Virus record (IMG/VR): IMGVR_UViG_3300041955_000247
Span: 1-64,000 of that record
Reading direction: 5' to 3' (one strand)
DNA length: 64,000 nucleotides
Origin: a virus
Part shown: positions 491 through 48,737 of the stretch, piece after piece
How the letters are laid out: the number at the start of each line of letters is the position of its first letter
Position numbering within the stretch: the stretch's first letter is position 1
Program-made: the position numbers and the translations under genes
The notes under the pieces: model-generated
The model's database searches: none
Told to the model about the DNA's origin: nothing
What the model saw: the letters and a program-made list of their open reading frames with translations, nothing else

Positions 491-519
491 GGGGCGGAAC
501 CAGAAAGAGGAGAAAGACG

Positions 520-894: not shown

Positions 895-901
895 CAATTA
901 A

Positions 902-992
902 CCGGGGCAAACCAATGCCCCGGCTTTCTAGCGCGTAACACCGCATGGCAAACCAATGCCGAGGGGTGAGAGTTGAGTTCCCTTCAACCCCT
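902..992 (+). promoter_or_regulatory. Structured intergenic leader: two hairpins with identical GGCA-AACCAA-TGCC, then a third stem before the RBS
   Basis: CCGGGGCA-AACCAA-TGCCCCGG at 902-923; GGCAAACCAATGCC at 906-919 and 947-960; AGGGGT...ACCCCT at 962-992. Confidence 0.5.
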
Positions 993-1008
993 GTAGAGGA
1001 GGCCAAGA

Positions 1009-1587
1009 ATGGCCAACCCGATTATCTACTCTACGACGACCCAATCGGGGATCGACATCAACAGCGTGTTCCTGTTGGACACGGCTAGTCACCCTGAGTA
1101 CCCGGCACCGCCCTTCTACCCCGGCGAACAGGCATGGGGCACCGATGGCAGTGCGTGGGTCTACGCTACCGCCAGCCAAACGCTTCCGGCTGGTGACGTG
1201 GTGGTTGTGTCAGAAGTGCCCGGCTCCTGGTCGGTGGCCCCCATTGGCGGTGCCACCATTGCCACTGCCCCCACCGGTGATCTTCTCGGTGTGGTTGGTG
1301 GACCCAGCGGCACCGTTGCGGTTCCGGCTCCGTCGGGAACGCAAACGGCGGCGTACTTCTGGATCCAGCGTGCAGGCAATGCGCAGAACGTTAGCTGCGC
1401 GGCGTCGACCACGAAGGATGCACAACTGCACTCAAGCGCTACCGTTGCCGGTCAGGTGACCACCACGGCGGGTGGCTCAGGTACGAGCTACAACGTCAAC
1501 GGCATGGTCATCAGTCAGGCCACCGGTTCGTTGGCAGGTCCCAACACGGCAGTTCTCAACTGGCCGGTTGTTGGTGCCACGGGCTAA
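1009..1587 (+). CDS. Putative capsid cement/decoration protein
   Basis: GAGGAGG RBS; S/T/A/G-rich 192 aa in head module. Confidence 0.5.
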   Translation: MANPIIYSTTTQSGIDINSVFLLDTASHPEYPAPPFYPGEQAWGTDGSAWVYATASQTLPAGDVVVVSEVPGSWSVAPIGGATIATAPTGDLLGVVGGPSGTVAVPAPSGTQTAAYFWIQRAGNAQNVSCAASTTKDAQLHSSATVAGQVTTTAGGSGTSYNVNGMVISQATGSLAGPNTAVLNWPVVGATG

Positions 1588-1601
1588 CCTATGCTACCTT
1601 C

Positions 1602-1636
1602 CCCAGCCGGTCTAAACCCCGGCTGGGTTTGTCTTT
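1602..1636 (+). terminator. Rho-independent terminator
   Basis: CCCAGCCGG-8nt-CCGGCTGGG followed by TTTGTCTTT. Confidence 0.65.
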
Positions 1637-1653
1637 ACCACTAGGAGCATGGT

Positions 1654-3060: not shown

Positions 3061-3072
3061 AGGAGTTGACCT

Positions 3073-3885
3073 ATGAGTGATGTAGATTATGGCCCGGCTT
3101 TCCGTCCACAGGGCGTTGATTGGAATAATGCCGATCAGACCGTTGGTACCGTCAATTTCCAGGATCGCAACACCCATGCGATCTTTTACATGGATAAACG
3201 CCACAATCCAGCGAAATCTGAGGCTGCCGGTCACCCGGTATTTGACAACATTGCGTTCGTTCGCATTGGCAACCCCGGTGAGCGCTTGAATGTGGTCATT
3301 CGCCCCGCCACTGATGTGGACCGCAGGCGCTTTGCCCTTCAGTGGGCACAGTTCCAGCAGAATGCAGAGCAGCGGCCCGACGGCGCACCCATTTCGCTGC
3401 TTTACCCCAATGACCCGGCGAAGATAGGCTTGCTGGAAGGGTGCAGCGTGTTCACCATTGAGCAATTGGCCGAACTCTCAGGCAACGCCATTGAGAACAT
3501 TGGTATGGGCTGCCAAACCATGGTCAATGAGGCCCAGGCTTACCTGAAGATGGCCAGCAAAGGGGTTGGTGCCATTGAGTTCCGCAAGCAGCTCCAGGAA
3601 CGCGATCAGCGGCTTGCCGCGCAGCAACACCAAATTGACGAATTGAACAACACCGTGACCAAGTTGCTCCGGCAGCTTAAGTCCGGGGCCTTGCGTGAGG
3701 CTGATATTGAGAGCGCAGGCATGATGGAACGCCCCACACATATGCCGCATGCGCAGTTCGACGCGCAGTCGGAACAGATTGCCGCGCTTGATCGGCAGAA
3801 CCGTGGTGCGGGCCGCGTGAAAGCCCCGGCACCGAAGAAAACAGCGTCCAAACCGCGTAGAGAACGCACACGTCTTGCCGAATGA
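3073..3885 (+). CDS. Phage hypothetical protein (HhH-like segment, coiled coil)
   Basis: GAGGAG RBS; FTIEQLAELSGNAIENIGMG segment; 270 aa. Confidence 0.55.
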   Translation: MSDVDYGPAFRPQGVDWNNADQTVGTVNFQDRNTHAIFYMDKRHNPAKSEAAGHPVFDNIAFVRIGNPGERLNVVIRPATDVDRRRFALQWAQFQQNAEQRPDGAPISLLYPNDPAKIGLLEGCSVFTIEQLAELSGNAIENIGMGCQTMVNEAQAYLKMASKGVGAIEFRKQLQERDQRLAAQQHQIDELNNTVTKLLRQLKSGALREADIESAGMMERPTHMPHAQFDAQSEQIAALDRQNRGAGRVKAPAPKKTASKPRRERTRLAE

Positions 3886-14343: not shown

Positions 14344-16019
14344 TGGCTCAGCAGCAATACCAAGCTGGTGACATAGCGGACCTGCCTGGGGGCGGGACGG
14401 CGACGTTTGACGGTCAGAATTGGGTTGTCCAAGGGCAGGCCCCGGCTCAAGGCCCCGTGCCCTCAGCCGCAACGGCTATTGTACCCCCGAACAAGACTTA
14501 TTCTGAAATGACACGGTTGCCTAAAGCAATCGGTGCCGGTGCTGTGCAGGGGGCAACAGAAGCTGCTGGGATGTTGGGTGATGTTCAAAGTTTGGGTAAT
14601 GCAGCCATAAACCAATGGGCACCACAAGGCTCAGATATTGGAAATACCATTGCTGCTTTGAAACAGTCGCACGCACCTTTTCCGGCGATTAATTATGTAC
14701 CGCTGCCAACATCTAAAGATGTACAAGGTGCGGTTCAGAAATTTACCGGGCCACCTTTTCAGCCCCAAACCCCGACTGAGAAGATTGCCTATGCCGGGGG
14801 TGAAGCTTTGCCGTTTGGATTGCTGGGCGGCGAAACAGCCCCACTAAGGGTGTTGTCAAATGTAGGACGTGCCGGGTTGTCGGGGGCTGCGTCCGAAGGT
14901 GCCGGTGAGGCTGCGCAAGGAACCGGGCTTGAAACACCAGCACGGGTGGCTGGTGGGCTTCTCACCTATGGGGCAACTGGAGCACCTTTCAGGTTTGCCA
15001 TAACCCCGAATTCGGCAAGGTCAGGTGCAGCATCGGTACTTGAAAATGCCGGTGTACCTGGGGTAAGGGCATCTGATATTTCAGGGAACAGACTCACAGC
15101 CACGCTAGAAGGTGGAAGAACACCCGCTGATTTGGCTGATCCCATTACCAATACTTTGCAGCAGCAGGGTGGCGTGCCACGGCTGCCTGGAGATTCCAGG
15201 CCATATCGCGAAATCTTAAATGACCGGCGAACACAGCTTGGTGGTGTGGCAAACCAGCTTGGTGCCCAGACATCAATTCCGGCGTCTGCGGTGCCCCCGC
15301 TACGTGCGCAGCTAAATGGTGTTGTGCAGCAGCACGCTCATAACTTTGCCGGGGCGGAACATCCCGAAGTTGCCCAGGCCCTCGACAGGTTTGACACTCA
15401 TCTGACTGAGAATGCGTTGCAAGGTCGCCCTGGTTTGACCGGTCAGCAATACCAGCGTCTCCATCAGGAATGGGGAACTTCTCCCATTTATGAAGTGCGG
15501 CAGATGTCTGGTATTTTAGATAATGCCATGGACCAGGCGCACCCCGGCGTATGGCCGCAGTGGCGTCAAAATTTTGGTGATTTGACAGGCTTGGAAGCGG
15601 CACATGCCGCGCGGGCGGGTGATTTGGCTCCGATGGACCCTGCGCAGATCCTGAATAATCAGTATGCGGTAACCCCGATGTACCGAACTGCCGAAGCCGC
15701 AAAAACCATTCAAGGAAAGATACCACAACCATATAATGTAAACACCCCCGCTTTGGCTGCCACAACTGGTTTGCTTGGTGGCTTCGCCGGACATTACTAC
15801 GGTGGTGTTGAACCCGGCGTTGAGGGGTTCCTAATGGGGGGTGCGGTGCCGGTAGCCGGGTCAATGCTTGGATCTACCGTTGGTGCTTTGGCTAGGGGTA
15901 AGGTGGGGCAGAACGTGCTTCGCAACATGGATCCGAGGATGGTCGCGGCTTTGCTGGCTCAGCAGGGTATTCGTCCTAAAGGTGCCCCCGCCGAGCAGCC
16001 GCAGGGCGCTGGTCAGTAA
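14343..16019 (+). CDS. Internal virion / DNA ejection protein
   Basis: 558 aa, G/A-rich with hydrophobic glycine-rich stretches; coupled to upstream gene (TAATG). Confidence 0.6.
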   Translation: MAQQQYQAGDIADLPGGGTATFDGQNWVVQGQAPAQGPVPSAATAIVPPNKTYSEMTRLPKAIGAGAVQGATEAAGMLGDVQSLGNAAINQWAPQGSDIGNTIAALKQSHAPFPAINYVPLPTSKDVQGAVQKFTGPPFQPQTPTEKIAYAGGEALPFGLLGGETAPLRVLSNVGRAGLSGAASEGAGEAAQGTGLETPARVAGGLLTYGATGAPFRFAITPNSARSGAASVLENAGVPGVRASDISGNRLTATLEGGRTPADLADPITNTLQQQGGVPRLPGDSRPYREILNDRRTQLGGVANQLGAQTSIPASAVPPLRAQLNGVVQQHAHNFAGAEHPEVAQALDRFDTHLTENALQGRPGLTGQQYQRLHQEWGTSPIYEVRQMSGILDNAMDQAHPGVWPQWRQNFGDLTGLEAAHAARAGDLAPMDPAQILNNQYAVTPMYRTAEAAKTIQGKIPQPYNVNTPALAATTGLLGGFAGHYYGGVEPGVEGFLMGGAVPVAGSMLGSTVGALARGKVGQNVLRNMDPRMVAALLAQQGIRPKGAPAEQPQGAGQ

Positions 16020-30027: not shown

Positions 30028-31041
30028 TCAGTCATCGTCATCGTCGGCGCTTTTGGAGCTGCTTTTACGGCGCTCCGCTAAACGCTCACGCAATGACTTC
30101 CTGGGGGCTTCACCATCAGCATCGTCGTCAGCGGCAGCCTTGCGCTTGGGCTTTTCATCCGGTTCGTCGTCATCGGCCTCTTCCTGTACCCGTGCACGGC
30201 GTGACGGCTTCTTGGGTTCGTCGTCACCCTCCGGTTCAGCACGGGCCTTGTGCTTTGGCTTTTCATCGACCTCGTCGTCATCATCAGCCACTTTGCGCTT
30301 GGGCTTCTCCTCATCCTCATCCTTGCCGCGTACCTGACCGTCAAACGCCGCGCTGATGGCGTCGGCATCATAGTATTGCAGGCAGTCAGGCACCGGGTTG
30401 TCCTTGACGAACCCAAGCCATTCATCCTGCACATCCTGATCCTCATGTAGCGGTGCGGCGTCCATCAGCTTCATGCGGCCACCGGGGTATTTGGTATTGA
30501 GGCCGCTGCCCTCCTTGTAGAAGCGCAGATCATGGCCTTCCTCAGGGTCATCCGGGTACACCACTTCCTTGGTGTCCTCATCCAGGCACAAGTTGACAAA
30601 ATCCTTGTCAACGCTGAACGGGATGTCCCAAAGCTGGGGGCCTTCGTCCTCATCCAGCCGGTCAATCACCCAAACCAGCACGCGCTGACGCGGTGCCAAT
30701 GCCTTGGCGGTGTCGTCGTCACCCTCGCGCTGAGCTTCCTTGCGGGCTGCGGCCAACGGGTCCTTGCCATACTCGCCCTCGGCATCCATTTTGCTCAGTG
30801 ACAGGTAGGATTGGTTGTCGGCGCCAATGCCATAATTGACAAAAATGTCGTAGCCGTAGTGCTTGGGCTTTTCCCATGTGGCAGGCAGGATGCGCACCAT
30901 GTTCTTGCCGTCACGCACCTTGTAGCGCTTGAATTCCTGCTTGATGTAGCTGTCAAAGCCACCGCCGCGCATATTGGCACGGGCCTTCACATCCTCACGG
31001 CTACGCTTCTGATAGTTAAAACTACGCTCACTCTTTGCCAT
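30028..31041 (-). CDS. Single-stranded DNA-binding protein (T4 gp32-like)
   Basis: VRILP, DPEEGHD, G.GLNTKY motifs; acidic C-terminus ending DDDD. Confidence 0.7.
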   Translation of the reverse strand: MAKSERSFNYQKRSREDVKARANMRGGGFDSYIKQEFKRYKVRDGKNMVRILPATWEKPKHYGYDIFVNYGIGADNQSYLSLSKMDAEGEYGKDPLAAARKEAQREGDDDTAKALAPRQRVLVWVIDRLDEDEGPQLWDIPFSVDKDFVNLCLDEDTKEVVYPDDPEEGHDLRFYKEGSGLNTKYPGGRMKLMDAAPLHEDQDVQDEWLGFVKDNPVPDCLQYYDADAISAAFDGQVRGKDEDEEKPKRKVADDDDEVDEKPKHKARAEPEGDDEPKKPSRRARVQEEADDDEPDEKPKRKAAADDDADGEAPRKSLRERLAERRKSSSKSADDDDD

Positions 31042-33876: not shown

Positions 33877-36557
33877 GATACGTCCTTGTGCGACCAGAAT
33901 TTACCAATCTCTTCCATCCCGAACCAATGCTTGCCCACTGAGCATGAGACGGACAGGGGCACGTTGATGAAGTCATAGTCCGGTGTGAGCATGACTGAAT
34001 ATACGTCCTTGATTGTGGCTTCCAAGGTCTTGTCGTCATCAGGCACCATCAGGGTCAGGTCGTCATGAATATTTAGAATAGGGTGCAGGTACCATTTGCC
34101 TTCTTCTGCCGCCAGTTCGGACAGGGTGTTCATGGAACGGCACACGATGTCGCAGGCTACTGATTGAATGGGATCATTGATGGCCTGATTGCGCGTCATG
34201 GGGTAGTGACGCCTCCGCCCGGTGGGGCTTTGGACATAGCCCTTTTCCCAGTAGCCTTCCATTAGCTTATTCTGCCATTCGTAGAGGCCATGAAAGGTTC
34301 GCCAAAACTCACGCATCAGCTTGTCAATGATCTCAACCGGTATGCCCAAGTAGCCCGCAATGGAAGTGTTCTGCGCACCAAAAATGGCTGGGAATGTCAG
34401 CTTGTTCTTAATCTTTGATCTAAACTTCTTCATCACGTCTTTGTCAGTCAGGTACTTCTTGCCACCAATGATCTCAGGGTACAGGTGAGCGGTCTTTTGC
34501 GCCCACTCCATATGAATATCGTAATCCTCCCAAAGCGCCTTGATCAGCACCTTGTCCTTGGAACACATGGCGGCGGTGCAGCCCTCTAGCTGTCCGTAGT
34601 CAAAGGCCAGCAGCGTATAACCGTCAGGGGCTACTATTTGGTTCCTCACCCAGGCATCGTTGCGCTGGGGGAAGTTCTGCATGTTGGGATCATCACTGCT
34701 GGTGCGGCCGGTTTCAGCAAAGGTACAATTGAAATTGCAATGGATCAGCCCATCGGGGTAGATCATTTTGCCTTTGCCAAGCTCCAGGCCGTCAACGTAG
34801 GTGGACAAAAGCTTGGCGCGGTTGCGGTACTGGATCACCAAATCAGCAAGTGGGTGGTCAATTTGGCTGAGGACATTTTTGTCAACTGAGAACTTGCCGG
34901 TTCGGTCATCGTCGAAGCGGCGCTTGCTGTCTGACGATTTGTTGAAATCATGGGCTTCGTAGCCCTCACGCTCAACCTCGACTTCCGGCCGTTTCAGGTA
35001 ATCCTTGAAGATCTCAAGAACCTGCCGGTCATTGGAAGCCGCGAACTCACCGTGATCCTTCACATAGGCTTTGACCACCTTCAGCCCGGCTATATCAGCC
35101 TCAATCTGCTTGATCTCAGGTTTCAGCTTGTTCTGGGCCTTTTTGACCTCTGCTTGATCTACCGGCACACCCAGGAACTGCATCATGGCCACGCTGGTTT
35201 GCCGTGGCAGAGCTTCCCGGTAGGCGTCATACAGGCCAAAGCGCTTGAGAAGCTTGGTCTGGTAGTGGTGCAGCCGCAGCGTGACCTTGGTGTCCACTGC
35301 ATTGTAGATCAGTGTCTCAGCAAGATCGGATTTTGACATATCCTTCTTGTCAAGCTTGAACATCGACTTATAGGTAAAGCCAAAATGCTGCTTCAGCAGG
35401 AAGTCCAACGCCTGATAGGCGGCGCGACGATCACTCTCCTCGTTGCTGCGTGACTTGCCCCGGCGCTCATCCAGGAAGTGGGCCTCCATCTGGGTGCAGT
35501 GCCAGTTGTGGTGCTGAAGCACGTCACGGCCCAGGTACCAGATCATCCACTCAACTTCGAACGGTGCATTATGGGCTATTTTGGTCGTATTCGTAGTGAG
35601 GGCAGCTTTGAGAGCCGCTTTGAGGGCGGTTTTTTGCTTGACCGTCCAACCGGCCTTTGGGTGGTCGAGTGCAAAGCTGAAATTGACGCTGCCGAAGCTA
35701 AAGGCGGCAGACATGATCGCGGCATCGGGCTTATATGGCCGTAATCCTTTGGTTTCAATGTCAAAGGCTTTTTCTTTGGCTTTTCCGGCCTGTTCAAGTA
35801 GGTATTGCACTCGATCAAAGGAATGTGGCCCCTCAAAGGTTTCAACATTGGCCCTAAGTTCCTTTTCGTCATCTATTTGTGGTTCCTCAAGCCATTCTAG
35901 GGCATCAAACGCTTTGCGTATGTCCATCCTGAAGCAGTGACCCATCATTGAGTTGAGGGGCTTGCGCTTGTCACGTGCTATGTGCAGCAGGAACGACGGA
36001 TGATAAGTTGGCATGAACCAGCAGGTGTGTTCGCCAAATTTGACGGCAAAGAACCTGCCGCGCATGCCCTTCAGGTCACCGCTGCCAAGCATGGCCTGCA
36101 ACGGCACCGCGCCCAGACCTACGATCAGCCGTGGCTTGACTTCCTGAATGTATTTCAGTCGGCGGGGCCTACAACACTCGATTTCAACCCAGGTGGGGGT
36201 TCGGTTTTTTGGTGGGTGGCAGTTCGCGACATTATCAAAGCTGCAAGGGCCATGGCCGTCAGGTATGCACTCACGAAGAATAGCACCAGACGGACCGGTG
36301 AGCGGCTTTCCCGTATTTTCATCTTCATCCCTCTCAGGGGCTTCAGCCAAGAAGTAGATCTCACCCCCTTTGGCCAAGGTGGGGACCATGTAGGGGGTTT
36401 GAATACCCGGCTGCTTGTTCAAAGGGCATGCTTTGCAGCCAAGCCTAGCAAGCGCCTGAGCGCTGTGTTTTGCAGCCCCGCTAGGGGTATAGCCTGCTGA
36501 TTTTGCCTTACCAGTGACCGCGCCACGGGCAGGCTGCTTGGTGAAGAAAAAACTGAT
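33873..36557 (-). CDS. polA: Family A DNA polymerase with N-terminal uracil-DNA-glycosylase-like and 3'-5' exonuclease domains; probable ATC start
   Basis: CKACPL / EAP / HPS (UDG-4-like); DIET / HNAPFE / YNAVD (exo); TGRTSS, DYGQLE, R..IK...F, IHDD (Pol A). Confidence 0.9.
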   Translation of the reverse strand: MSFFFTKQPARGAVTGKAKSAGYTPSGAAKHSAQALARLGCKACPLNKQPGIQTPYMVPTLAKGGEIYFLAEAPERDEDENTGKPLTGPSGAILRECIPDGHGPCSFDNVANCHPPKNRTPTWVEIECCRPRRLKYIQEVKPRLIVGLGAVPLQAMLGSGDLKGMRGRFFAVKFGEHTCWFMPTYHPSFLLHIARDKRKPLNSMMGHCFRMDIRKAFDALEWLEEPQIDDEKELRANVETFEGPHSFDRVQYLLEQAGKAKEKAFDIETKGLRPYKPDAAIMSAAFSFGSVNFSFALDHPKAGWTVKQKTALKAALKAALTTNTTKIAHNAPFEVEWMIWYLGRDVLQHHNWHCTQMEAHFLDERRGKSRSNEESDRRAAYQALDFLLKQHFGFTYKSMFKLDKKDMSKSDLAETLIYNAVDTKVTLRLHHYQTKLLKRFGLYDAYREALPRQTSVAMMQFLGVPVDQAEVKKAQNKLKPEIKQIEADIAGLKVVKAYVKDHGEFAASNDRQVLEIFKDYLKRPEVEVEREGYEAHDFNKSSDSKRRFDDDRTGKFSVDKNVLSQIDHPLADLVIQYRNRAKLLSTYVDGLELGKGKMIYPDGLIHCNFNCTFAETGRTSSDDPNMQNFPQRNDAWVRNQIVAPDGYTLLAFDYGQLEGCTAAMCSKDKVLIKALWEDYDIHMEWAQKTAHLYPEIIGGKKYLTDKDVMKKFRSKIKNKLTFPAIFGAQNTSIAGYLGIPVEIIDKLMREFWRTFHGLYEWQNKLMEGYWEKGYVQSPTGRRRHYPMTRNQAINDPIQSVACDIVCRSMNTLSELAAEEGKWYLHPILNIHDDLTLMVPDDDKTLEATIKDVYSVMLTPDYDFINVPLSVSCSVGKHWFGMEEIGKFWSHKDVS

Positions 36558-40779: not shown

Positions 40780-40889
40780 TGTAAGCCCCGTTGCTGATGA
40801 TGAAGAACCCTCAATGAATTGGTAAGGCTACAATGCCGCAAGACCACGAAGCAACAGGAATAAAATTACACTCCTATGCCTTCTTGCGA

Positions 40890-40988
40890 TTACGAGCCTA
40901 TTGCCTTGTAATAGGCATACCACGTTAGATAGGTTGCGCCTTGCGTGCCTGGGCCATGCGGTTCGATAAGAGTCAATTTGAGTTTCAC
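40890..40988 (-). CDS. Cassette micro-ORF (32 aa)
   Basis: GTG after AGGAG: MKLKLTLIEPHGPGTQGATYLTWYAYYKAIGS. Confidence 0.45.
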   Translation of the reverse strand: MKLKLTLIEPHGPGTQGATYLTWYAYYKAIGS

Positions 40989-40996
40989 GGCCGCTC

Positions 40997-41143
40997 CTAT
41001 TCCTCGTTGAGGTATTTGAGAAGATCGTCCACGTTATCAAAGGAGGCTTCGGGCGGCGCTGCATCAGCCTCCATAATAGAACGCACGAAAGTGGGATCGT
41101 ATCCATCCCACCAACATCGCAATCGAAACCAAAGATCGCGCAC
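40997..41143 (-). CDS. Cassette ORF (48 aa), C-terminus like RelB/DinJ antitoxin tails
   Basis: MRDLWFRLRCWWDGYDPTFVRSIMEADAAPPEASFDNVDDLLKYLNEE; stop is the junction TAG. Confidence 0.6.
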   Translation of the reverse strand: MRDLWFRLRCWWDGYDPTFVRSIMEADAAPPEASFDNVDDLLKYLNEE

Positions 41144-41160
41144 GCCGGTCTCCTATATCT

Positions 41161-41580
41161 CTACGGGGTTGCTGGTAAAATCTGTTTGACGATCCATCTT
41201 CGCATTCGGGCAAATCGCTGCTCTGGCGTTTCTTTTATATTAAAACCAAAATCATCGTCGTTTTCAAAAACGACTTCGCGAGCCATCGCCGATGCAATCC
41301 CAAACACCGCAGACACTTTATCGGCGTCCTCATAGTCGAGGCCGAGCATATCAATGCCGCGAGCCTTGCCTACCGCGCCTATGGCACAGACAGCGCCAGT
41401 ATCAGGTTCAACAAGTTCACCGGCAATCAGTTTCTTTTCCGGTAACGCATCGAGCGCCGCAAGCATTTCCTTTAGGAAGGCTTGACCACGCCGACCTTTG
41501 ATCGCGCTGGCGACCGCACCACGGTAAAGGTAGCCAGAATTATCCTCACCATAATCATCGCTGTAGCCGCTGCGGCTCAT
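41161..41580 (-). CDS. Cassette: phage hypothetical protein (MSRSGYSDD type)
   Basis: 139 aa between junctions 41150 and 41587. Confidence 0.75.
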   Translation of the reverse strand: MSRSGYSDDYGEDNSGYLYRGAVASAIKGRRGQAFLKEMLAALDALPEKKLIAGELVEPDTGAVCAIGAVGKARGIDMLGLDYEDADKVSAVFGIASAMAREVVFENDDDFGFNIKETPEQRFARMRRWIVKQILPATP

Positions 41581-41589
41581 GCTGGCTTC

Positions 41590-41907
41590 CTAATTCTCTT
41601 GGCCTGATTGTTGAACAATCGGCGTCGTAGGCACGCTGCACATCCCCCCGCCGCCAGTATGCTTAACGAAGAACTCAAGATGATCTGGCGAGCCTTCATC
41701 AAACACAATATCAAAGCCACACTCCCACATGCCGTCGCGTATTCGAGGCTCGACAAACTTTTTGAAACGTCCCTTGCGACCGTTGCTTAGAGTAAACTCT
41801 GTGCCGAACGGCAATCGCGCCCATATTTCTCGGATGACTTCTGGCATTTCACCGTATAGTCCCGGCAAGTGTTCATCGAGGAAGTCTTGTGCCTCGTCCC
41901 GATTCAT
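41590..41907 (-). CDS. Cassette hypothetical protein (105 aa)
   Basis: ATG 41907 after AGGAAC; stop is the junction TAG. Confidence 0.65.
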   Translation of the reverse strand: MNRDEAQDFLDEHLPGLYGEMPEVIREIWARLPFGTEFTLSNGRKGRFKKFVEPRIRDGMWECGFDIVFDEGSPDHLEFFVKHTGGGGMCSVPTTPIVQQSGQEN

Positions 41908-41947
41908 GGTGGTTCCTATCATGCTTATCCGGTTTAGACACACAGCC

Positions 41948-42229
41948 CTACATCTTGTGTTCGAGTTTTTGTCGAGCAATCGCGGCCTGATCTTCGGCAA
42001 CAATCCGCGCGTAGTTTGCGGTTTTGGCTTCATCGTCCGCCTTGCGCCGGGCCGCAAAGCCATCAAGAGCGCGCTGGAACGCCTGCCTTGGCGTCAGCCC
42101 CTGCTTAAAAAGCGGATACCAGTGCGATGTGTAGATAGTGAACTCACCGCGCTCGTAGCCAAATTCGCCTTGAATTACGTCCTCGTCGAGGGTCTGAATC
42201 CATTTTCTAAATTGTTTGCTCTGGATCAT
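41948..42229 (-). CDS. Passenger hypothetical protein (93 aa)
   Basis: GGAGAG RBS; inside IR element. Confidence 0.65.
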   Translation of the reverse strand: MIQSKQFRKWIQTLDEDVIQGEFGYERGEFTIYTSHWYPLFKQGLTPRQAFQRALDGFAARRKADDEAKTANYARIVAEDQAAIARQKLEHKM

Positions 42230-42244
42230 GGTTTCTCTCCCCGA

Positions 42245-42499
42245 CTAGATGATCATCCGCAGCGGGATTGCATCGACGGTCGGACGCGGGTCCGCTTGCC
42301 GTTTCAGATCGCGCTCGAACTCGGCCGTCAATTCGTCAATATCCGGGTCGGATTTTGGAATTTCCGGTGCAATTCTCGTGATGAAGCACTGCACCGGAAT
42401 GCCGCCATCGGTCTCGCCCTGCCAAACACGCGCCGGAACGTCCCGGCCGCCGACTACGAGCGTCACGATCTTGCTGGTGCTCTCGATTCTGATCTTCAT
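42245..42499 (-). CDS. Passenger hypothetical protein (84 aa)
   Basis: GAGG RBS; PARVWQGET.GGIPV. Confidence 0.7.
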   Translation of the reverse strand: MKIRIESTSKIVTLVVGGRDVPARVWQGETDGGIPVQCFITRIAPEIPKSDPDIDELTAEFERDLKRQADPRPTVDAIPLRMII

Positions 42500-42561
42500 T
42501 TGCCGCCTCTATATCTAGTAGGTCTCAGCGTTTGTGTGTGGCAACCGGATAAGCATGGTTC

Positions 42562-42753
42562 CTATTTTGGCAAGCGTATTAACTTGCGTGCGTTGGGCAG
42601 CATATTGTTATCATAATAAAGCAGCCCGGTCATGCCGTCGTCCCATCTGACGAGAACGCAATAGTCGTCAGCGCGCTCGACTACACCGTGAGATGTGGCG
42701 ACCACAACATCGGGCTGCTCAACCCGATCACCGACCTTTAGATGCGCCTTCAT
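42562..42753 (-). CDS. Cassette small SH3-like protein (63 aa)
   Basis: ATG 42753 after AGGAG; LKVGDRV...VLVRWDDG. Confidence 0.65.
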   Translation of the reverse strand: MKAHLKVGDRVEQPDVVVATSHGVVERADDYCVLVRWDDGMTGLLYYDNNMLPNARKLIRLPK

Positions 42754-42761
42754 GACCGCTC

Positions 42762-42968
42762 CTATTTTGCTAATGCCGTTCGCGGCGAAAGTTTCTGTTT
42801 GACGGCACTCCAACGCACACGCCGCCGCGACAGTTCATTCTCTATCATTTTTAGGTTGCCGTAGATAATATCAGTCGGCATTCCACAGTCGCGGCGGCGC
42901 TTGAAATAGATGTTGATACGCTCCTGCAAATGGAGCAATCGCTCCGTATCTATTTCAGCCACGCGCAC
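42762..42968 (-). CDS. Cassette hypothetical protein (68 aa)
   Basis: GTG after AGGAG; ends ALAK at junction TAG. Confidence 0.6.
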   Translation of the reverse strand: MRVAEIDTERLLHLQERINIYFKRRRDCGMPTDIIYGNLKMIENELSRRRVRWSAVKQKLSPRTALAK

Positions 42969-42979
42969 GCGAAAAACTC

Positions 42980-43234
42980 CTATACCTTCAGGCTGATTGC
43001 ATCCGAAAAGAAAGTCTCGGCTTTTGTTCGCAACCCAGTATGGTGATCCATCATCTTAGCGCCGCTGATTTTGTATTCGGCAAATGCGGTTTTTACCTCC
43101 TGCTCAGAGAGGCCGAGTGCGCACTGAATATCGAACACAACGCACCGCAAGTGACCGAGGCGCCGCAGTGCGCGTAGGTATTCGTTGATAGCCGTAGCTA
43201 TCTCTCTAGATGATGGCCGAGGAACGCTGGACAC
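42980..43234 (-). CDS. Cassette hypothetical protein (84 aa), possible HTH
   Basis: GTG after AGGAG; DIQCALGLSEQEVK; stop at junction. Confidence 0.6.
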   Translation of the reverse strand: MSSVPRPSSREIATAINEYLRALRRLGHLRCVVFDIQCALGLSEQEVKTAFAEYKISGAKMMDHHTGLRTKAETFFSDAISLKV

Positions 43235-43315
43235 GTTTGGCTCCTATTTTGCTAATGCCGTTCGCGGTCATGCACCCAACGGCCCTTGCGATCATTTGTT
43301 CACGCAAGCAGTCTC

Positions 43316-43573
43316 CTATTTTGACTTTGGCGGTTTAGGCAAAGGCATCCAATGTGTCATGCCCACCCAATTAGGTTCTTCATCGCCATCACATAAATGC
43401 CACTCGCAGAGACAGCTACACCAGAACATGACAACATAATCAGAACGGGGCTTATCGCCCTTGGCTGGCTTCCCGTATCCCAAACGGGGCTTATCGCCCT
43501 TGGCTGGCTTCCCGTATCCCAAAATGCTGCGTCCGTCTTTCGGCGCAGTTTTGATGGATTGCCACGCGCTCAT
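43316..43573 (-). CDS. Cassette DUF551-like protein
   Basis: WQSIKTAPKDG...THWMPLPKPP. Confidence 0.8.
   Translation of the reverse strand: MSAWQSIKTAPKDGRSILGYGKPAKGDKPRLGYGKPAKGDKPRSDYVVMFWCSCLCEWHLCDGDEEPNWVGMTHWMPLPKPPKSK
43444..43521. repeat. Perfect 39-bp tandem duplication
   Basis: AACGGGGCTTATCGCCCTTGGCTGGCTTCCCGTATCCCA x2; encodes LGYGKPAKGDKPR twice. Confidence 0.95.
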
Positions 43574-43581
43574 GGCCGCTC

Positions 43582-43830
43582 CTATTCCTCGTCGGGCTTA
43601 TTGACGACATTGTAACCAGCCGCGTTCGATTTGCCATCTTCGTGCATGAACCAATACGCAGACATCAAGCCGCCTGTGGTGGACTCGTCAATGCCGAGGC
43701 GATGAATTTGACGAGTAGGAAAAGAGCCATCAGCGCGTGGTCCCCATTGCTTCCAGCCAGCGAAATTTGTCTCAACAAGAACACACGATTCACCGTTCTC
43801 AAACTGAATTGGCTTGTTCCAATCAATCAC
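43582..43830 (-). CDS. Cassette hypothetical protein (82 aa)
   Basis: MIDWNKPI; stop at junction. Confidence 0.65.
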   Translation of the reverse strand: MIDWNKPIQFENGESCVLVETNFAGWKQWGPRADGSFPTRQIHRLGIDESTTGGLMSAYWFMHEDGKSNAAGYNVVNKPDEE

Positions 43831-43841
43831 GCTACCCGCTC

Positions 43842-44015
43842 CTATTTTGACTTTGGTTTACCGTTGACAGCTTCTATTGCAAATCGCCGAAGGGCATCTG
43901 CTGGACAAGCCGTGGCTCGATGTATTCGCCTTAGCTCACGTTCGTAGTAGCGCGCAACGCGGCGAAATGCTTTCCAGTCCTTCGGTCCAAGTTCGACCCT
44001 CGATAATCGGGACAT
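43842..44015 (-). CDS. Cassette basic protein (57 aa)
   Basis: Read by hand: MSRLSRVELGPKDWKAFRRVARYYERELRRIHRATACPADALRRFAIEAVNGKPKSK. Confidence 0.6.
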   Translation of the reverse strand: MSRLSRVELGPKDWKAFRRVARYYERELRRIHRATACPADALRRFAIEAVNGKPKSK

Positions 44016-44024
44016 GCCGCACTC

Positions 44025-44213
44025 CTATTTTGCTAGTTCGATTTCAGCGACGAGGCCAAGAAGGTCCCGCTCCATCGCGTCCAACTCTTTAAGCCGAGAG
44101 GCGATTTGTTTGCGCTCCGCGTCGATTTTGCCTAGGCGGCCATCCACGCAATCGCATGACGCATAATGATGGTTCATCTTACCGCAGCTTTGGCACTTCC
44201 GGGGCAAACGCAC
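44025..44213 (-). CDS. Cassette Zn-knuckle / coiled-coil protein (62 aa)
   Basis: CQSCGK..H...C; ends ELAK at junction. Confidence 0.6.
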   Translation of the reverse strand: MRLPRKCQSCGKMNHHYASCDCVDGRLGKIDAERKQIASRLKELDAMERDLLGLVAEIELAK

Positions 44214-44221
44214 GGCCGCTC

Positions 44222-44434
44222 CTATTCCTTCATCGCCTGTTTGGCGTGTTGCTTACAGAACCTTTGATCCGGCCCATAGCCACGTCTGCGGCGGCACTGA
44301 TGGAACAAATAAGACACTCCATCGGCAACCTCTGCAATGCAATCGCCCCATCGCTCGGCGTGGCCGTTCGGGTTACCAGCCCATGCGCCATACCGGCGCT
44401 TGCCGTCTTTTCCGGGGTTGGGGACGAGAACCAC
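44222..44434 (-). CDS. Cassette Cys/His-containing protein (70 aa)
   Basis: YGAWAGNPNG...C...QC...FCKQH; stop at junction. Confidence 0.65.
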   Translation of the reverse strand: MVLVPNPGKDGKRRYGAWAGNPNGHAERWGDCIAEVADGVSYLFHQCRRRRGYGPDQRFCKQHAKQAMKE

Positions 44435-44443
44435 ACGAGTCTC

Positions 44444-45061
44444 CTATATCTCTTTCCGCTTCCTGTCCGCCGCGCGCTTGCGCACGAATCGGCCTTTCCC
44501 GACCTGCTTCCAGTGGCCGTACACACTGGCGGTCGAAACCCCCAGCTTCTCGGCCACCTTGGGGCCGGTCATGCCGCCGTTTAGAAGCTCGCCCACGCGC
44601 TTAATTCTGTCGGGTGTCATGTACACTTTCGGCCCCCAACTCTTGTCCTTGCGGCGCGCTCGTAGCGCGGCAATGCCCGCAGAGGTTCGCTGCGCGATGA
44701 TCTGGCGCTCGAACTCGGCAACAAGGCCTAAAACACCAAGCACAAGTTTCCCCGATACAGTCCCGAAGTCGAAGTTTTCTTGGAGCGAGCGAAAATACGC
44801 GCCTTTGGCGTAAATTGCGTCGAGGCGAGCGTAAAGCTGCCGCATAGACCGCGCCAGCCGGTCAAGCCGCCACACAACGAAAGTATCGCCTTCGCGTAAA
44901 TCCTTGATGGCGTAATCCAGCGCCGGGCGCTTAGCGGATGCCCCGGATACCTTTTCAACGTGCAGATTGTCCGGCTTGACCCCCGCCGCCTTGAGGGCGT
45001 CGGTTTGCAGGTCAAGCGATTGATCTTCGGTCGAGACGCGGGCATAGCCGACAAGTGCCAT
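44444..45061 (-). CDS. Small serine recombinase (resolvase/invertase family)
   Basis: GYARVST (Ser10), VWRLDRLAR, AEFER..I.QRT..G, C-terminal HTH VAEKLGVSTASVY. Confidence 0.95.
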   Translation of the reverse strand: MALVGYARVSTEDQSLDLQTDALKAAGVKPDNLHVEKVSGASAKRPALDYAIKDLREGDTFVVWRLDRLARSMRQLYARLDAIYAKGAYFRSLQENFDFGTVSGKLVLGVLGLVAEFERQIIAQRTSAGIAALRARRKDKSWGPKVYMTPDRIKRVGELLNGGMTGPKVAEKLGVSTASVYGHWKQVGKGRFVRKRAADRKRKEI

Positions 45062-45087
45062 TTCCTGTACCTAAGCAGATTGGCAGC

Positions 45088-45130
45088 ATACTATATGGGA
45101 CTTGACAACCTGTCAAGACCGTGATTTGAT
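45088..45130. promoter_or_regulatory. Divergent promoter with palindrome CTTGACA-ACC-TGTCAAG
   Basis: Minus strand TTGACA (45116-45111)-17nt-TAGTAT (45093-45088); plus strand TTGACA 45102-45107 with weaker -10. Confidence 0.7.
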
Positions 45131-45157
45131 TAAAAGACAGAATGGAGATTCAGGCCG

Positions 45158-45454
45158 ATGCCATGCTATCAGCCCAATGGAACGCCACTGACTGACCGAG
45201 AGCGTGAAGTGTTGGTCATTCTGATGGAAGAATGCGCCGAGGTCATTCAGGCAGCGAGCAAGCTGATCCGGTTTGGCAAAGAGACCCGTCCCGATGATTT
45301 GCATTTGCCGAATAGCGAAGTTCTCGGCATCGAGATTGGCGATCTAAAATGTATGATTGACAATGTGTTGTTCGAGGGGATCATCAGCCAAGAACACTTG
45401 ACGCTCGGCGCGAAACGCAAGCAAGCTCGGCTTGCTCAGTATATGCAGACGTAA
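45158..45454 (+). CDS. MazG-like NTP pyrophosphohydrolase
   Basis: EECAEVIQAASK..RFG...EIGDL. Confidence 0.75.
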   Translation: MPCYQPNGTPLTDREREVLVILMEECAEVIQAASKLIRFGKETRPDDLHLPNSEVLGIEIGDLKCMIDNVLFEGIISQEHLTLGAKRKQARLAQYMQT

Positions 45455-45471
45455 ATTGAAGGAATAGGCCG

Positions 45472-45795
45472 ATGGTTCAGACGCGCGATTTTCCCACTGC
45501 CGTTATCGCATCAATTTCGACCGGCATATTGCTCTGTGACTTTGGCAAGATGCAGGAAGCGGCCGAGTATCTCATGGGGCACCCGATCTGGACGCATCAT
45601 TTCGCTGACAAAACTCTTACTTTGGAAATGAAACGAACGATTGCCGAGCAATGTCCTGGTATGCCGATGGAGATTGATGGTGTGACGAAGGACAACTATC
45701 TGGAAAAACTAGCCGTCATCGAAGCTGAAATCGGCAAGACCGTTCGCATCCGTAAGGGCCGCGGCCTCACCGCGATGTTGCCGGCCGGTGGTTGA
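45472..45795 (+). CDS. Cassette hypothetical protein (107 aa)
   Basis: ATG directly after junction; SISTGILLC...YLMGHPIWTH. Confidence 0.7.
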   Translation: MVQTRDFPTAVIASISTGILLCDFGKMQEAAEYLMGHPIWTHHFADKTLTLEMKRTIAEQCPGMPMEIDGVTKDNYLEKLAVIEAEIGKTVRIRKGRGLTAMLPAGG

Positions 45796-45925
45796 GAACT
45801 GCGCCGTCGATGATTGTCGCAAGCGCGAATATATCGCGGAGATCGAGTTGCTTCGCGCGGAGATCGAGGCGCTTAAACTTGAAATCAAGATGTACGAACA
45901 GAGGTTTGCCGAGTTGGCAAAATAG
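45788..45925 (+). CDS. Cassette coiled-coil micro-ORF (45 aa)
   Basis: MVENCAVDDCRKREYIAEIELLRAEIEALKLEIKMYEQRFAELAK; stop is the junction TAG. Confidence 0.5.
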   Translation: MVENCAVDDCRKREYIAEIELLRAEIEALKLEIKMYEQRFAELAK

Positions 45926-45929
45926 GCCG

Positions 45930-46229
45930 ATGACAGCGGATTTGGGTAAAGAGGCGTTTTATGCGTCCTTGGCGATTATTGGCTTCGTTCTGGGAATGCT
46001 CGGCATTCATTGTCATCGATGGAACTCCTTACTACGAGTAGCCGCAATCTTTTTTGGCTTATTCCTCTGTGCCTTTGGCCTCGGTTCTACTTTGATCGTG
46101 CGTTCTGAGCGCGTCTCCGCCGCCCCCGGGATCATAATCGCCCTTTCGCCTTTGGCCCTGACCGATCCAAGGCTTTTGAAACCCATAGAAAACGGGAGGC
46201 TTACGAGGTTTGCCGAGTTGGCAAAATAG
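45930..46229 (+). CDS. Cassette membrane protein (99 aa)
   Basis: ATG after junction; two TM segments; ends RFAELAK. Confidence 0.6.
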   Translation: MTADLGKEAFYASLAIIGFVLGMLGIHCHRWNSLLRVAAIFFGLFLCAFGLGSTLIVRSERVSAAPGIIIALSPLALTDPRLLKPIENGRLTRFAELAK

Positions 46230-46249
46230 CCCGCTAATACGGAATTAAC

Positions 46250-46354
46250 ATGGATCAACGCACACGAACACTGTTGCTCGCGATTTACGGCACCAAGGCT
46301 GCGGCTGGAGTAATTGTGTTAGCCGTGCTGCTTATCTATCACTTCTGGGGCTGA
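46250..46354 (+). CDS. Cassette single-TM micro-ORF (34 aa)
   Basis: MDQRTRTLLLAIYGTKAAAGVIVLAVLLIYHFWG. Confidence 0.45.
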   Translation: MDQRTRTLLLAIYGTKAAAGVIVLAVLLIYHFWG

Positions 46355-46544
46355 TGGTGATGCGCGGAACGATAATCGTTGCCTCCGTTGTATTTGGGGG
46401 GGTCCTCGGTGGGCAACAGCAACCATTTGCGGCTGGGCTGTTCTTTGGTCCGGTCTGTTTGCCTGCTACGATTTGGCGCGTTAATGACAGATTAACAGGA
46501 ACAAGGAATAGGCCGCTAATGCGTCGTTAGTCGGGATTTGCACG

Positions 46545-46832
46545 ATGATCGAAATGGTTCCTAGGCCCCACATCGTTCGCCGCACTTGTGGCGGTTACTT
46601 GGCCGTTGCATCAAAGCGAGCCCGGTTCCGAATTGGCGTCACGGCGGAAACAGAGGCGGCGGCCGAACATAAGTTCTGGTTCACCTACGTCCGATGGTGC
46701 GAACTGGTCCCACTGGAAGCTGTCGGCGAGTGCACCCAATTAACAGCGCCTCATCTTCGTGGTGAGCGTGAGCCTATCGAGAGGTTGGCTTGGGGGTGCA
46801 CTCACCAGCAGCGTCAAACAAAATCGGTCTAA
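46545..46832 (+). CDS. Cassette hypothetical protein (95 aa)
   Basis: Between junctions 46507 and 46855; RIGVTAETE. Confidence 0.55.
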   Translation: MIEMVPRPHIVRRTCGGYLAVASKRARFRIGVTAETEAAAEHKFWFTYVRWCELVPLEAVGECTQLTAPHLRGEREPIERLAWGCTHQQRQTKSV

Positions 46833-46864
46833 CACGGGGTTAGCAGAAACAAGGAATAGGCCGG

Positions 46865-47809
46865 TTATAATTGCAAGACTTGCTTTGCAGTAAGCAGGCC
46901 GGGGTCTTTCACCCCTGACGGCAACATAGCAATTTGCACATTGGCCCCCGGCAGGCTGTCGCAAAGGCTCAGCGCACTACCTAAAGCTTCGCTGTCAAAC
47001 AGCACCCGCACCTTGTCATACTTTGGAATGAGCGCTTGCAGGGCAGCAAGTTGCCCCGCCGTGGGGTTAACCCCAAAAGTGCAGGTGGCCCGATGCCCAT
47101 GTGGTGCCCCGTAGTAATCCACCTTGATGGCGTCAAACGGCCCCTCTGTCACAAACAGCGTCTCACCGCCGTGACTGAGATCATGCTCATTGAACACCAC
47201 GGTTTTGATAGCCGCCGACGAACTGAGATAGCGCGGTGCGTGAGTGGTAGGTTGAATGGCGCGGGCTGTCCAACCCGCCAGTTCGCCGTTGCTTTGCTGA
47301 ATGGGTATGATGATCCGGTCCTTCCACCTGCCATGCTGGCAGCACAACAAGTCGTATTGCTCAATCAGGGTGCTAACATCATCAAAGCCCCTGCCCTCAA
47401 GGTACCGCCAAAAACGCCCTGTAAGCCCCGTGGGCTTGATTTGCCTAAATTCAGGGGGTAGCTGGCTGGGCAATTCATCACGCTGTACGGGCTGCGCTGA
47501 GCCACCCAGGGCCATTATGGCCTGCTCAAGGGTTTCAGGGTCGGCGGCGCTGTGCTGCCCCACAATCAACCGGGCTTGGCTGAATGAACAGCTCAGCAGG
47601 GCCGCCACAAGGCTGTAGGGCTTGCGCCCAGCGTGCTTGGCGTTGCGCCAGCAGCCAAAGGCGTCCTTGGTCAGTGAGATGGAAAGATGTTCGCTTGGAT
47701 CATCAGGACCGCACCAGGGGCACTTTAGGGCAAGCTGGCCCTTTCGGACGTTAGGCCCACTGGTGACATAATCAATATGATTGGCTTCTAGGAACGCTAC
47801 CCAGTCCAT
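46865..47809 (-). CDS. DNA primase (Zn finger + TOPRIM)
   Basis: CPWC...H...CWR; RIIIP; TEGPFD; DPG. Confidence 0.9.
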   Translation of the reverse strand: MDWVAFLEANHIDYVTSGPNVRKGQLALKCPWCGPDDPSEHLSISLTKDAFGCWRNAKHAGRKPYSLVAALLSCSFSQARLIVGQHSAADPETLEQAIMALGGSAQPVQRDELPSQLPPEFRQIKPTGLTGRFWRYLEGRGFDDVSTLIEQYDLLCCQHGRWKDRIIIPIQQSNGELAGWTARAIQPTTHAPRYLSSSAAIKTVVFNEHDLSHGGETLFVTEGPFDAIKVDYYGAPHGHRATCTFGVNPTAGQLAALQALIPKYDKVRVLFDSEALGSALSLCDSLPGANVQIAMLPSGVKDPGLLTAKQVLQL

Positions 47810-48192
47810 CAGTATGGTATCTCGTTGACAGGTGCTACATCAAATTCAACAAAGCTGGTGCGTTGATTGGCCCGCTGTTCTTTCTTGGTAGCCCATTGGC
47901 AATTGTCCTTAAAGTAACCGAGATTGCCGTCTTTGCGGTCCAAAGTCATTTCCCTGCAAGGTCGCTCACCCATGTCCTCGAGGAAGTTCCTGAAGGCATC
48001 AGGCGAACCGCGCCGCCAGCGTTCGCAGACCTCAATGCCACGGCCACCATACAAATGGTACCACTTGTGGGTGCTTTGATAGCAACGCGAATTCATGGAT
48101 TCCCACGACAAGTAAGTGGGTGATTTCTTGACCTTCCATTTGCCTTTGATGTTGCGGGTGCGTGACGTGTGGCCGTGGCGCTTCCCTGTCAT
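47809..48192 (-). CDS. HNH-type endonuclease
   Basis: SW..M..RC...YGGRGIEVCERW...DMGERP...TLDR.D...NCQWAT. Confidence 0.8.
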   Translation of the reverse strand: MTGKRHGHTSRTRNIKGKWKVKKSPTYLSWESMNSRCYQSTHKWYHLYGGRGIEVCERWRRGSPDAFRNFLEDMGERPCREMTLDRKDGNLGYFKDNCQWATKKEQRANQRTSFVEFDVAPVNEIPY

Positions 48193-48737
48193 TTATAGGC
48201 CCTCATGGCATGATGGTTACAATACGTGTGGTCGGTCCATGCACCACAAAAGAAAAAGTCTTTGTCACCCACGTCTCCAACGGCCCATCGGCATGTGTGG
48301 CCGTTGAGTTGCAGCAGTGTAAGCCGCTGTTCCTGAGGAATGGCTTTATCGTATTCTGAGGGTTTGATATGAATGGGTTCGGTGGGGGTGCTGTCGGGTA
48401 TGTCAACGGCAAGGGCGATACGGAGGCGTCGCTTCTTGGTGAAATGGGTGTAGGCTTGAATAACCTTTTGCGGATTGGGCTGAACTGGTCTGACTGTTGC
48501 ACCTTTGGCCCGATGCCGGGGGCGGCCTCCTGGGCTGGCCTTGTTCTTGAAAATATGTAAACGGTGCATTTTGCCTATGACGGCATTACGGGTGGCAAAC
48601 CCTAGTTTGTCGGCTATTGCACTGGCTGATAATCCAGCCGCTGCATATTCTCTAAGCTCAGCCTCTTTCTTTTTGTCCCATCCTGGGTTCTGGTTCTGTT
48701 TGTACTTTTGTTCGGACGGTGTATCCAAATATGTCAC
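48189..48737 (-). CDS. gcrA: GcrA cell-cycle regulator homologue
   Basis: GLSASAIA..LG..TRNAVIGKMHRL; C-terminal TCRWAVGD....FFFCG....YC..H. Confidence 0.9.
   Translation of the reverse strand: MTYLDTPSEQKYKQNQNPGWDKKKEAELREYAAAGLSASAIADKLGFATRNAVIGKMHRLHIFKNKASPGGRPRHRAKGATVRPVQPNPQKVIQAYTHFTKKRRLRIALAVDIPDSTPTEPIHIKPSEYDKAIPQEQRLTLLQLNGHTCRWAVGDVGDKDFFFCGAWTDHTYCNHHAMRAYK

Follow-up and report, generated by a model that had tools for sequence, protein, structure and literature searches.

The window analyzed here comprises the first 64 kb of the 76,451-bp single-contig virus record IMGVR_UViG_3300041955_000247. All genes in the window point along the plus strand up to approximately 24.4 kb and along the minus strand thereafter, with the sole exception of a plus-strand block at 45158–46832. 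This block is part of an island of approximately 6 kb, in which the gene of a small serine recombinase (REC) is located between two outward-pointing strings of small open reading frames (ORFs), here termed cassettes (Table 1). The left arm consists of 15 ORFs encoding 32 to 139 amino acids (aa), which are located downstream of REC on the same (minus) strand. The right arm consists of seven ORFs encoding 34 to 107 aa on the plus strand, divergent from REC. The ORFs reported are the authors' own picks. Only few cassettes have family matches (DUF551, an NTP pyrophosphohydrolase-like protein, DUF7736, and phrog_25637), and these are typical phage accessory proteins. The outward orientation of small ORFs around a 205-aa resolvase had already been described in a first-pass annotation made from the letters of the window alone, and the assignment of the resolvase agrees with the PF00239 match of the minus-strand gene at 44444–45061.

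Table 1. Features of the island (positions in the window; +, plus strand; −, minus strand)
Feature	Position	Strand	Remarks
Left island end: orphan left-type junction	40857–40877	−	ATAGGAG at 40871–40877; no start codon behind
TATTCC beside the left orphan junction	40857–40862		Homology to the empty site of L001 resumes here
Distal left-arm cassettes (block)	40890–41907	−	Junctions at 40994, 41150, and 41589
32-aa cassette	40890–40988	−	
48-aa cassette	40997–41143	−	
139-aa cassette	41161–41580	−	phrog_25637
105-aa cassette	41590–41907	−	
IS1595-family non-autonomous element inside a junction	41920–42557	not assigned	25-bp terminal inverted repeats; 8-bp target duplication ATAGGAAC
63-aa cassette	42562–42753	−	
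68-aa cassette	42762–42968	−	
84-aa cassette	42980–43234	−	
Decayed cassette remnant	43241–43310	−	GTG, two codons, and TGA, then 3' junction half only
Cassettes of 85 (DUF551), 82, 57, 62, and 70 aa	43316–44434	−	
REC, 205-aa small serine recombinase	44444–45061	−	PF00239; first gene of the left operon
Divergent control region	45062–45157		Between REC and the first right-arm gene
Right-arm cassettes (block)	45158–46832	+	AATAGGCCG at 45463, 45921, and 46507; AATAGCCCG at 46225
98-aa cassette	45158–45454	+	NTP pyrophosphohydrolase-like
107-aa cassette	45472–45795	+	DUF7736
45-aa cassette	45788–45925	+	
99-aa cassette	45930–46229	+	
34-aa cassette	46250–46354	+	
58-aa cassette	46354–46530	+	
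95-aa cassette	46545–46832	+	
Right island end: orphan right-type junction	46853–46863	+	GGAATAGGCCG; adjoins the primase stop (46865–46867)

The cassettes of each arm are separated by a conserved junction. The heptamer ATAGGAG occurs 18 times in the window (3.2 expected), and all 12 minus-strand copies of the 76,451-bp genome are located within the left arm (40871–44447, p ~7e-16). Four further left-arm junctions are variants of this sequence (AATAGGAAC at 42561, GATAGGAAC at 41915, ATTAGGAAG at 41589, and AATAGGCTC at 40897). The right-arm sequence AATAGGCCG is present in exactly four copies, all on the plus strand and all in the right arm (45463, 45921, 46507, and 46855), and the fifth right-arm junction is the variant AATAGCCCG. 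The annotation's counts of 15 left and five right junctions were therefore about right for the left arm and correct for the right arm. TAG stop codons terminate 15 of the 16 left-arm ORFs versus 27 out of 100 backbone ORFs (p = 4e-7), and only three of the backbone TAG stops are followed by GAG and one by GCC. The junction motifs are thus island-specific and not used by backbone gene junctions; a lack of enrichment over backbone junctions had been named beforehand as an outcome that would speak against the annotation's reading, and was not found. Further details given there proved to be accurate. REC terminates with the TAG that belongs to the first left junction, the last right junction extends to 46863, 1 nt short of the primase stop codon (46865–46867), and the similarity of sites across the arms (44024–44040 and 45910–45926) is real, covering 17 nt with 82% identity. 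The core is also kept at positions where its TAG does not terminate the preceding ORF (40871, 41150, 45463, 46507, and 46855), and the copy at 43241 sits in the decayed cassette remnant.

The left junction has the general form ..AA-TAG-GAG-(CGRCC)-RTG. The stop codon is located inside an AGGAG/Shine–Dalgarno sequence and the next ATG or GTG follows 8–11 nt after the stop, as exemplified by the five cassettes at 43316–44434, each of which ends with ..A-TAG-GAG. The right junction reads ..AA-TAG-GCC(G)-N0–4-ATG, with the ATG 4–8 nt after the stop. Among 93 motif copies in 11 arrays, 84 are followed by ATG, GTG, or TTG 4–11 nt after TAG; for the left-type copies, this applies to 50 out of 52, always on the coding strand. 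Beyond the chosen hexamer, only the two A's preceding TAG are strongly conserved, and the consensus displays no dyad symmetry. An inverted-repeat search did not reveal a palindrome at the junctions, and a consensus scan detected neither promoter-like nor terminator-like sites there. The first right-arm gene, which has no gene upstream, still carries AGGCCG-ATG (45152–45160). Related arrays retain AGGAGCGACC-RTG or AGGCC..ATG even with TGA or TAA as stop codon or with the stop a few nucleotides farther upstream. Because the start context is retained without an upstream gene and when the stop codon moves, the conserved element is start-associated. The left halves preceding TAG belong to a few sub-families (..GCAAAA, ..GTCAAAA, ..GAAGGAA, and ..GAGATA), which are found in both arms and at other loci.

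The catalytic domain of REC matches the resolvase family PF00239 (E = 2.9e-38) and carries the nucleophilic serine in a YARVS context; this residue (S10) is invariant among nine homologues. The closest solved relative is the Gin invertase (E = 3e-33). A putative C-terminal helix–turn–helix (HTH) domain (HTH_7) scored 18.8 bits, which is below the cut-off of 23.8, and this region aligns with the DNA-binding domain of Gin. To CcrB and CcrC, only a weak NCBIfam match of the catalytic domain was obtained, and a tyrosine recombinase domain (PF00589) was not detected anywhere in the 76-kb record. The control region between the arms contains the dyad TTGACA-N3-TGTCAA (45102–45116) and, pointing toward REC, a promoter-like sequence TTGACA-17-TAGTAT (45116 to 45088) matching the consensus at 10 of 12 positions; by the same consensus matching, no better site was found inside the arms. 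Most REC homologues are preceded by this dyad and by a second conserved block, and a dyad of 15–23 bp is restricted to this promoter region and does not occur at the junctions. The dyad was considered as a res- or hix-like binding site of REC and rejected, since its spacing varies by at least 4 bp among the homologues and two similar dyads are present in the backbone; a pair of −35 boxes is the more likely explanation. The backbone dyads (TTGACA..TTGTCAA) are located at 30593–30611 and 35333–35353. The three copies (0.76 expected) may reflect an early-promoter or operator design shared within this phage. A likeness of TTAGCAAAA to hix/gix invertase half-sites was also dropped, as it had no inverted partner. 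A dimer-type crossover site, that is, two inverted half-sites around a central dinucleotide, was not found at the junctions.

All relatives used for comparison are uncultured contigs. The closest relative found (L001) encodes helicase, SNF2, primase, and clamp proteins with 60% to 81% identity to those of the window. In L001, the primase gene is followed by approximately 90 nt and then by the sigma-like gene, without an island in between; an empty junction of this kind in a related phage had been suggested in the first-pass annotation as a check. The complete 95-kb record of L001 contains no REC homologue and no clustering of WTAGGAG. On the left side, the window becomes homologous to L001 again at TTATTCC (40857–40863). 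By comparison with this relative, the 6-kb block is an insertion in the phage backbone. GGAATA/TATTCC is found at both island ends and at the empty site of L001. Toward the primase, the boundary can be placed only to within approximately 20 nt, since the window and L001 have different primase C-termini there; for this reason, the significance of the repeated GGAATA is likewise uncertain.

REC homologues with 54% to 85% identity were identified in about twenty viral and metagenome contigs, and the same motif arrays accompany them in unrelated backbones. Next to homologues with at least 70% identity, TAGGAG occurs downstream 5.8 times per 4 kb on the same strand versus 0.22 times on the opposite strand, and TAGGCC occurs upstream 3.5 times per 4 kb on the divergent strand versus 0.64. 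For recombinases with less than 49% identity, the corresponding figures are 0.65 and 0.33. In four whole phage records, WTAGGAG clusters are located only directly behind REC. The array of L219 at first seemed to lack REC, but the contig is terminally repeated and the array continues from REC over its ends. L005 (REC 78% identical) possesses the promoter region and lacks the arrays. REC of L002 is 85% identical, whereas the helicase and SNF2 proteins are only 32% to 36% identical, which points to a transfer between distant phages. Among the homologues, the island occurs in either orientation relative to the backbone genes. A single inversion was considered for L003, L004, L007, and L010 and rejected, because the differences in orientation toward a common backbone gene cannot be reduced to one such event. 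The TAGGAG array of the L002 record (G003; 99999–103399 and 104–3739) appears to span the record ends and would, given a circularly permuted record, comprise about 13 junctions over approximately 7 kb. A blastn search of the island against 50,697 phage records returned no match, and the primases of cultured phages are only 30% to 34% identical to that of the window. Scans of viral contigs for the exact junction words GGAATAGGAGCGGCC and GCAAAATAGGAGCNNNNRTG yielded 35 and 33 single matches, respectively, which is about chance level; true arrays were found only where the match also had a REC homologue.

The cassette content differs almost entirely between the arrays of REC homologues. None of the window's cassettes has a counterpart in any other array according to tblastn, and among the arrays only a handful of cassette families are held in common. 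L003 and L010, whose REC genes share approximately 71% identity at the DNA level, have one cassette in common that is 97% identical over 235 nt. The homologous stretch runs from the TAG in the upstream junction to the TAG that terminates the cassette itself, and in L003 the unit is flanked by a 12-nt repeat, TTGAAGGATTAG. In the window, direct repeats that take in the end of the preceding gene enclose units of one or two cassettes. A perfect 28-nt repeat (42758–42785 and 43240–43267) brackets the 68-aa and 84-aa cassettes, a perfect 18-nt repeat (43313 and 43839) brackets two cassettes of the block next to REC, and a third repeat covers 29 nt (86%). A further repeat of 25 nt is the identical start of a 42-nt repeat with 83% identity. 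A repeat of 96 nt with 100% identity is present in L008, and a junction segment is repeated in L010.

Contigs of four metagenomes were aligned to the window. Contigs of one independent soil metagenome match it up to 44441 or 46863 or from 45152 onward and diverge at these positions, a weak indication given by single short contigs. In the contigs of the probable source metagenome, clean inversion or deletion joints between junctions were not found; the Logan contigs used hide rare variants, so that this negative has no bearing on the activity of REC. Two joints (45157 to 45904 and 45157 to 46839) are unreliable because one side covers only 20 letters, and a joint from 46547 to 46829 (X2 and X3, side of 35) hints at the replacement of one ORF between kept flanks. 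Taken as a set too small for statistics, these breakpoints and repeats may reflect recombination between motif copies with gene gain, loss, or replacement.

With moderate confidence, we regard the locus as a self-contained mobile phage accessory island, in which the stop/ribosome-binding site/start junctions double as microhomology and REC serves the island as a whole. The control region (45062–45157) would act as a bidirectional host-type promoter region driving two polycistronic operons, one of which begins with the Gin-like small serine recombinase, and within each operon the small unrelated genes would be joined by the stereotyped junction. To judge from its anatomy, the junction may function at the RNA level as a start-associated termination–reinitiation signal. 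Because the same 10–30 nt are found at every gene boundary in all islands of the family, they would also provide portable microhomology for cassette exchange. Cassettes could then be gained, lost, and swapped singly between islands by general (homology- or annealing-based) recombination, to which the breakpoints and flanking repeats point. REC, the only conserved protein of the island, would most likely act at the level of the whole island, that is, in insertion, inversion, or resolution, rather than in cassette exchange. The long identical left halves suggest single crossovers within stretches of identity, as an exchange at a 2-bp core would not leave them, and the arm-specific right halves argue against a free insertion of circular cassettes, which would mix them. 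Together with the absence of dyad symmetry, this makes catalysis by REC at the junctions unlikely.

The first-pass annotation had interpreted the locus as a platform for cassette capture or shuffling run by the recombinase. This is borne out as far as the association of arrays with REC, the turnover of cassettes, the island-specific motif, and the empty site are concerned. Of the four outcomes named there as refuting, three were looked for and not found. An action of REC at the junctions is without support, considering the asymmetric, start-associated junctions and the long identical left halves. The interpretation is partly supported, the layout being integron-like in outcome and not in demonstrated mechanism.

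Several observations weigh against the island reading favored here. The outermost junction copy of each arm (40871 and 46855) has no gene behind it. The AGGCC of the right arm is a poor Shine–Dalgarno sequence, yet it is conserved, and the spacer CGRCC and the AA preceding TAG are conserved beyond the needs of ribosome pairing. Only one clean cassette transfer with high identity was found. Finally, the strict linkage of the arrays to one REC clade is explained neither by a purely translational nor by a homology model.

The best surviving alternative, doubtful in our judgment, is that the junction is a translation signal only. It would be a strong coupling signal inherited together with the island, REC would be an unrelated passenger, for example, an invertase or dimer resolvase, and the differences in cassettes would result from ordinary illegitimate recombination and decay. 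The start association of the motif and the little information it holds beyond that fit well with this explanation. So do the ordinary gene decay in the array (remnant at 43241–43310 and mini-ORF at 46516), the insertion of a DDE transposon at the same locus, and the presence of cassette homologues among the ordinary genes of unrelated Pseudomonas and Ralstonia phages. However, the breakpoints of the recent transfer and of the diverging metagenome contigs fall at junctions, junction segments with 100% identity bracket one or two cassettes in several arrays, and cassette turnover is nearly total while REC remains 70% to 87% identical. Furthermore, REC and arrays are never apart in the records examined, except for L005 with REC and no arrays, and the left-half sub-families confer identical C-terminal residues on unrelated proteins, which does not fit a purely translational role.

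An integron-like mechanism is unlikely. Here, REC would recognize the junctions (core TAGG), excise circular cassettes, and integrate them elsewhere, and it would also have inserted the island at a junction-like site. A Gin-like REC clade would accordingly run a two-armed cassette platform that hops between genomes, with stop codon, ribosome-binding site, and recombination site being one sequence, a proposal of equally low probability. It would account for the restriction of arrays to the vicinity of this REC clade and their absence from the REC-free relative, as well as for the reassortment of left halves (GCAAAA, GTCAAAA, GAAGGAA, and GAGATA) and right halves around TAGG within and between loci and arms. 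The orphan junction copy at each island end, the GGAATA located beside a junction-like ACAA(N)GGAATA at the island ends and the empty site of L001, and the TAG-to-TAG breakpoints of the one cassette transfer are also in accordance with it. Small serine recombinases that have been solved and studied bind dimer sites of about 26–28 bp. The junctions have no dyad symmetry, and their conserved information amounts to only approximately 8–10 nt, which coincide with stop codon, ribosome-binding site, and start codon. The right half is fixed per arm, whereas circular exchange at the core alone would mix it, and the long identical left halves in the flanking repeats are not predicted by site-specific exchange confined to the core. 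In addition, arrays of start-associated sequences (SAS) with nearly the same core have been described in cluster K mycobacteriophages without a link to a recombinase (PMC3203893). The strict linkage between REC and arrays, the conserved non-pairing positions, and the terminal orphans are the reasons why this mechanism retains the small probability assigned to it.

Least probable, and quite improbable in absolute terms, is that the two junction types (AATAGGAG.. and AATAGGCC..) are mRNA or DNA binding or cleavage sites of a host or phage factor (a translational repressor, an RNase, or a stoperator-like repressor) setting different expression per arm; the arm-specific variants are conserved down to approximately 54% REC identity, as are positions unable to pair with 16S rRNA (AA before TAG, CGRCC, and GCC), from which the authors of the SAS study argued likewise (PMC3203893), but the islands encode no conserved candidate factor except REC.

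Further features of the locus were recorded. The element at 41920–42557 is 638 bp long and contains two small ORFs (41948–42229 and 42245–42499). L006 (12414–14145) contains a 1.7-kb element with the same ends and a gene for a DDE transposase of the IS1595 family. In three other metagenomes, the ends of the 638-bp element were detected at 25–88x depth with varied flanks and replaced interiors. The depth and varied flanks of these ends, together with the transposase-encoding version in L006, indicate that the element belongs to a multi-copy IS1595-derived family with variable cargo. In L001, a methyltransferase homologue is present in two pieces (12518–13111 and 14246–14605 within 12518–14605), approximately 1.1 kb apart, which may represent a mobile insertion in the gene, and a second copy of a 127-aa protein family is located at 15100–15348. 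The DUF551 cassette harbors a perfect 39-bp tandem duplication (43444–43521, repeated peptide GYGKPAKGDKPR), of which contigs of two other metagenomes have a single copy (joint 43444 to 43484). The 99-, 34-, and 58-aa cassettes of the right arm (45930–46530) appear strongly hydrophobic by eye and may encode small membrane proteins; they have no family match. Near the methyltransferase and sigma-like genes, the phage encodes a homologue of the cell-cycle regulator GcrA (48189–48737, PF07750, E = 5e-28). Because of this backbone gene, the host is probably an alphaproteobacterium. A further REC homologue (L093, 57% identity) belongs to a contig assigned to the Beijerinckiaceae by binning.

Phages carry small accessory genes, many of which likely function in counter-defence or host takeover and which turn over very fast by mechanisms that are poorly known. 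The compact and recognizable module described here, consisting of one REC clade, one putative bidirectional promoter, and two junction types, flags hypervariable gene sets of this kind in uncultured soil, wetland, and freshwater phages. In case translational coupling and microhomology are the only roles of the junctions, the SAS phenomenon would be extended from actinobacteriophages to probable alphaproteobacterial phages and linked to modular shuffling. Should REC act on the junctions, the module would represent a novel type of cassette system, equivalent to an integron run by a serine recombinase. For synthetic operons, the junction could provide a portable stop–restart linker.

In a literature search, no report was found in which arrays of this kind are linked to a small serine recombinase, and the known systems resemble the island in part. 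The staphylococcal cassette chromosome (SCC; CcrAB) forms tandem arrays of mobile units linked to serine recombinases and separated by repeated sites. Its serine recombinases are large, its elements are of kb scale, and its target lies at rlmH in the chromosome, whereas the island has a small recombinase and single-gene units. The Gin/Hin/Cin invertases and Tn3/gamma-delta resolvases belong to the same fold family as REC, with an N-terminal catalytic serine and, in REC, a putative C-terminal HTH. A control region with a dyad is located upstream of REC as at res, but the dyad is also found at two backbone positions, and unlike in the Gin/Hin/Cin systems there is neither an invertible tail-fibre segment nor a 12-2-12 crossover site at the island junctions. 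With integrons, the island shares a recombinase gene beside an array of short, mostly promoterless, unrelated ORFs, which would be expressed from a putative platform promoter, and a highly variable cassette content. In contrast to the tyrosine-type IntI, REC is of the serine type, and unlike attC the junctions are neither imperfect palindromes nor folded-strand sites. The island also differs from integrons in its two arms and in the long direct repeats flanking inserted units.

A precedent for the shuffling of regulatory motifs is given by the promoter early stem-loops (PeSL) of T4-type phages (Arbiol et al., 2010, PMC2839356; Comeau et al., 2014, PMC4122927). Like the junctions, they are conserved regulatory motifs between small non-essential ORFs in hyperplastic regions. 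PeSL copies recombine, whereby genes are shuffled, deleted, or replaced and mini-circles are possible (PMC2839356; PMC4122927). A PeSL combines a promoter and a terminator in approximately 50 bp, whereas the junction described here is a stop/ribosome-binding site/start sequence of 10–30 nt inside operons and is tied to a recombinase gene.

The SAS of cluster K mycobacteriophages (consensus GGGATAGGAGCCC, 11–19 copies; Pope et al., 2011, PMC3203893) are located 3–7 bp before the start codons of non-structural genes, sometimes contain the upstream TAG, and have an unknown function (PMC3203893). They are described as spread over the right genome half without an attached recombinase or discrete mobile island, and a second arm with an AGGCC variant has not been reported (PMC3203893). 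Their hosts are actinobacteria, whereas the host of the island's phage is probably an alphaproteobacterium. Like the left junction, the SAS is a short asymmetric AGGAG repeat, often with an upstream TAG, and GGGATAGGAGCCC and the left junction have ATAGGAGC in common. Both the SAS and the junctions are positioned a few nucleotides upstream of start codons in a single orientation, precede only small non-structural genes of differing families, and are conserved at non-pairing positions; the island's motif is likewise confined to small non-structural genes and rare elsewhere in the genome. The SAS is the closest described feature, the likeness being an analogy rather than shown homology.

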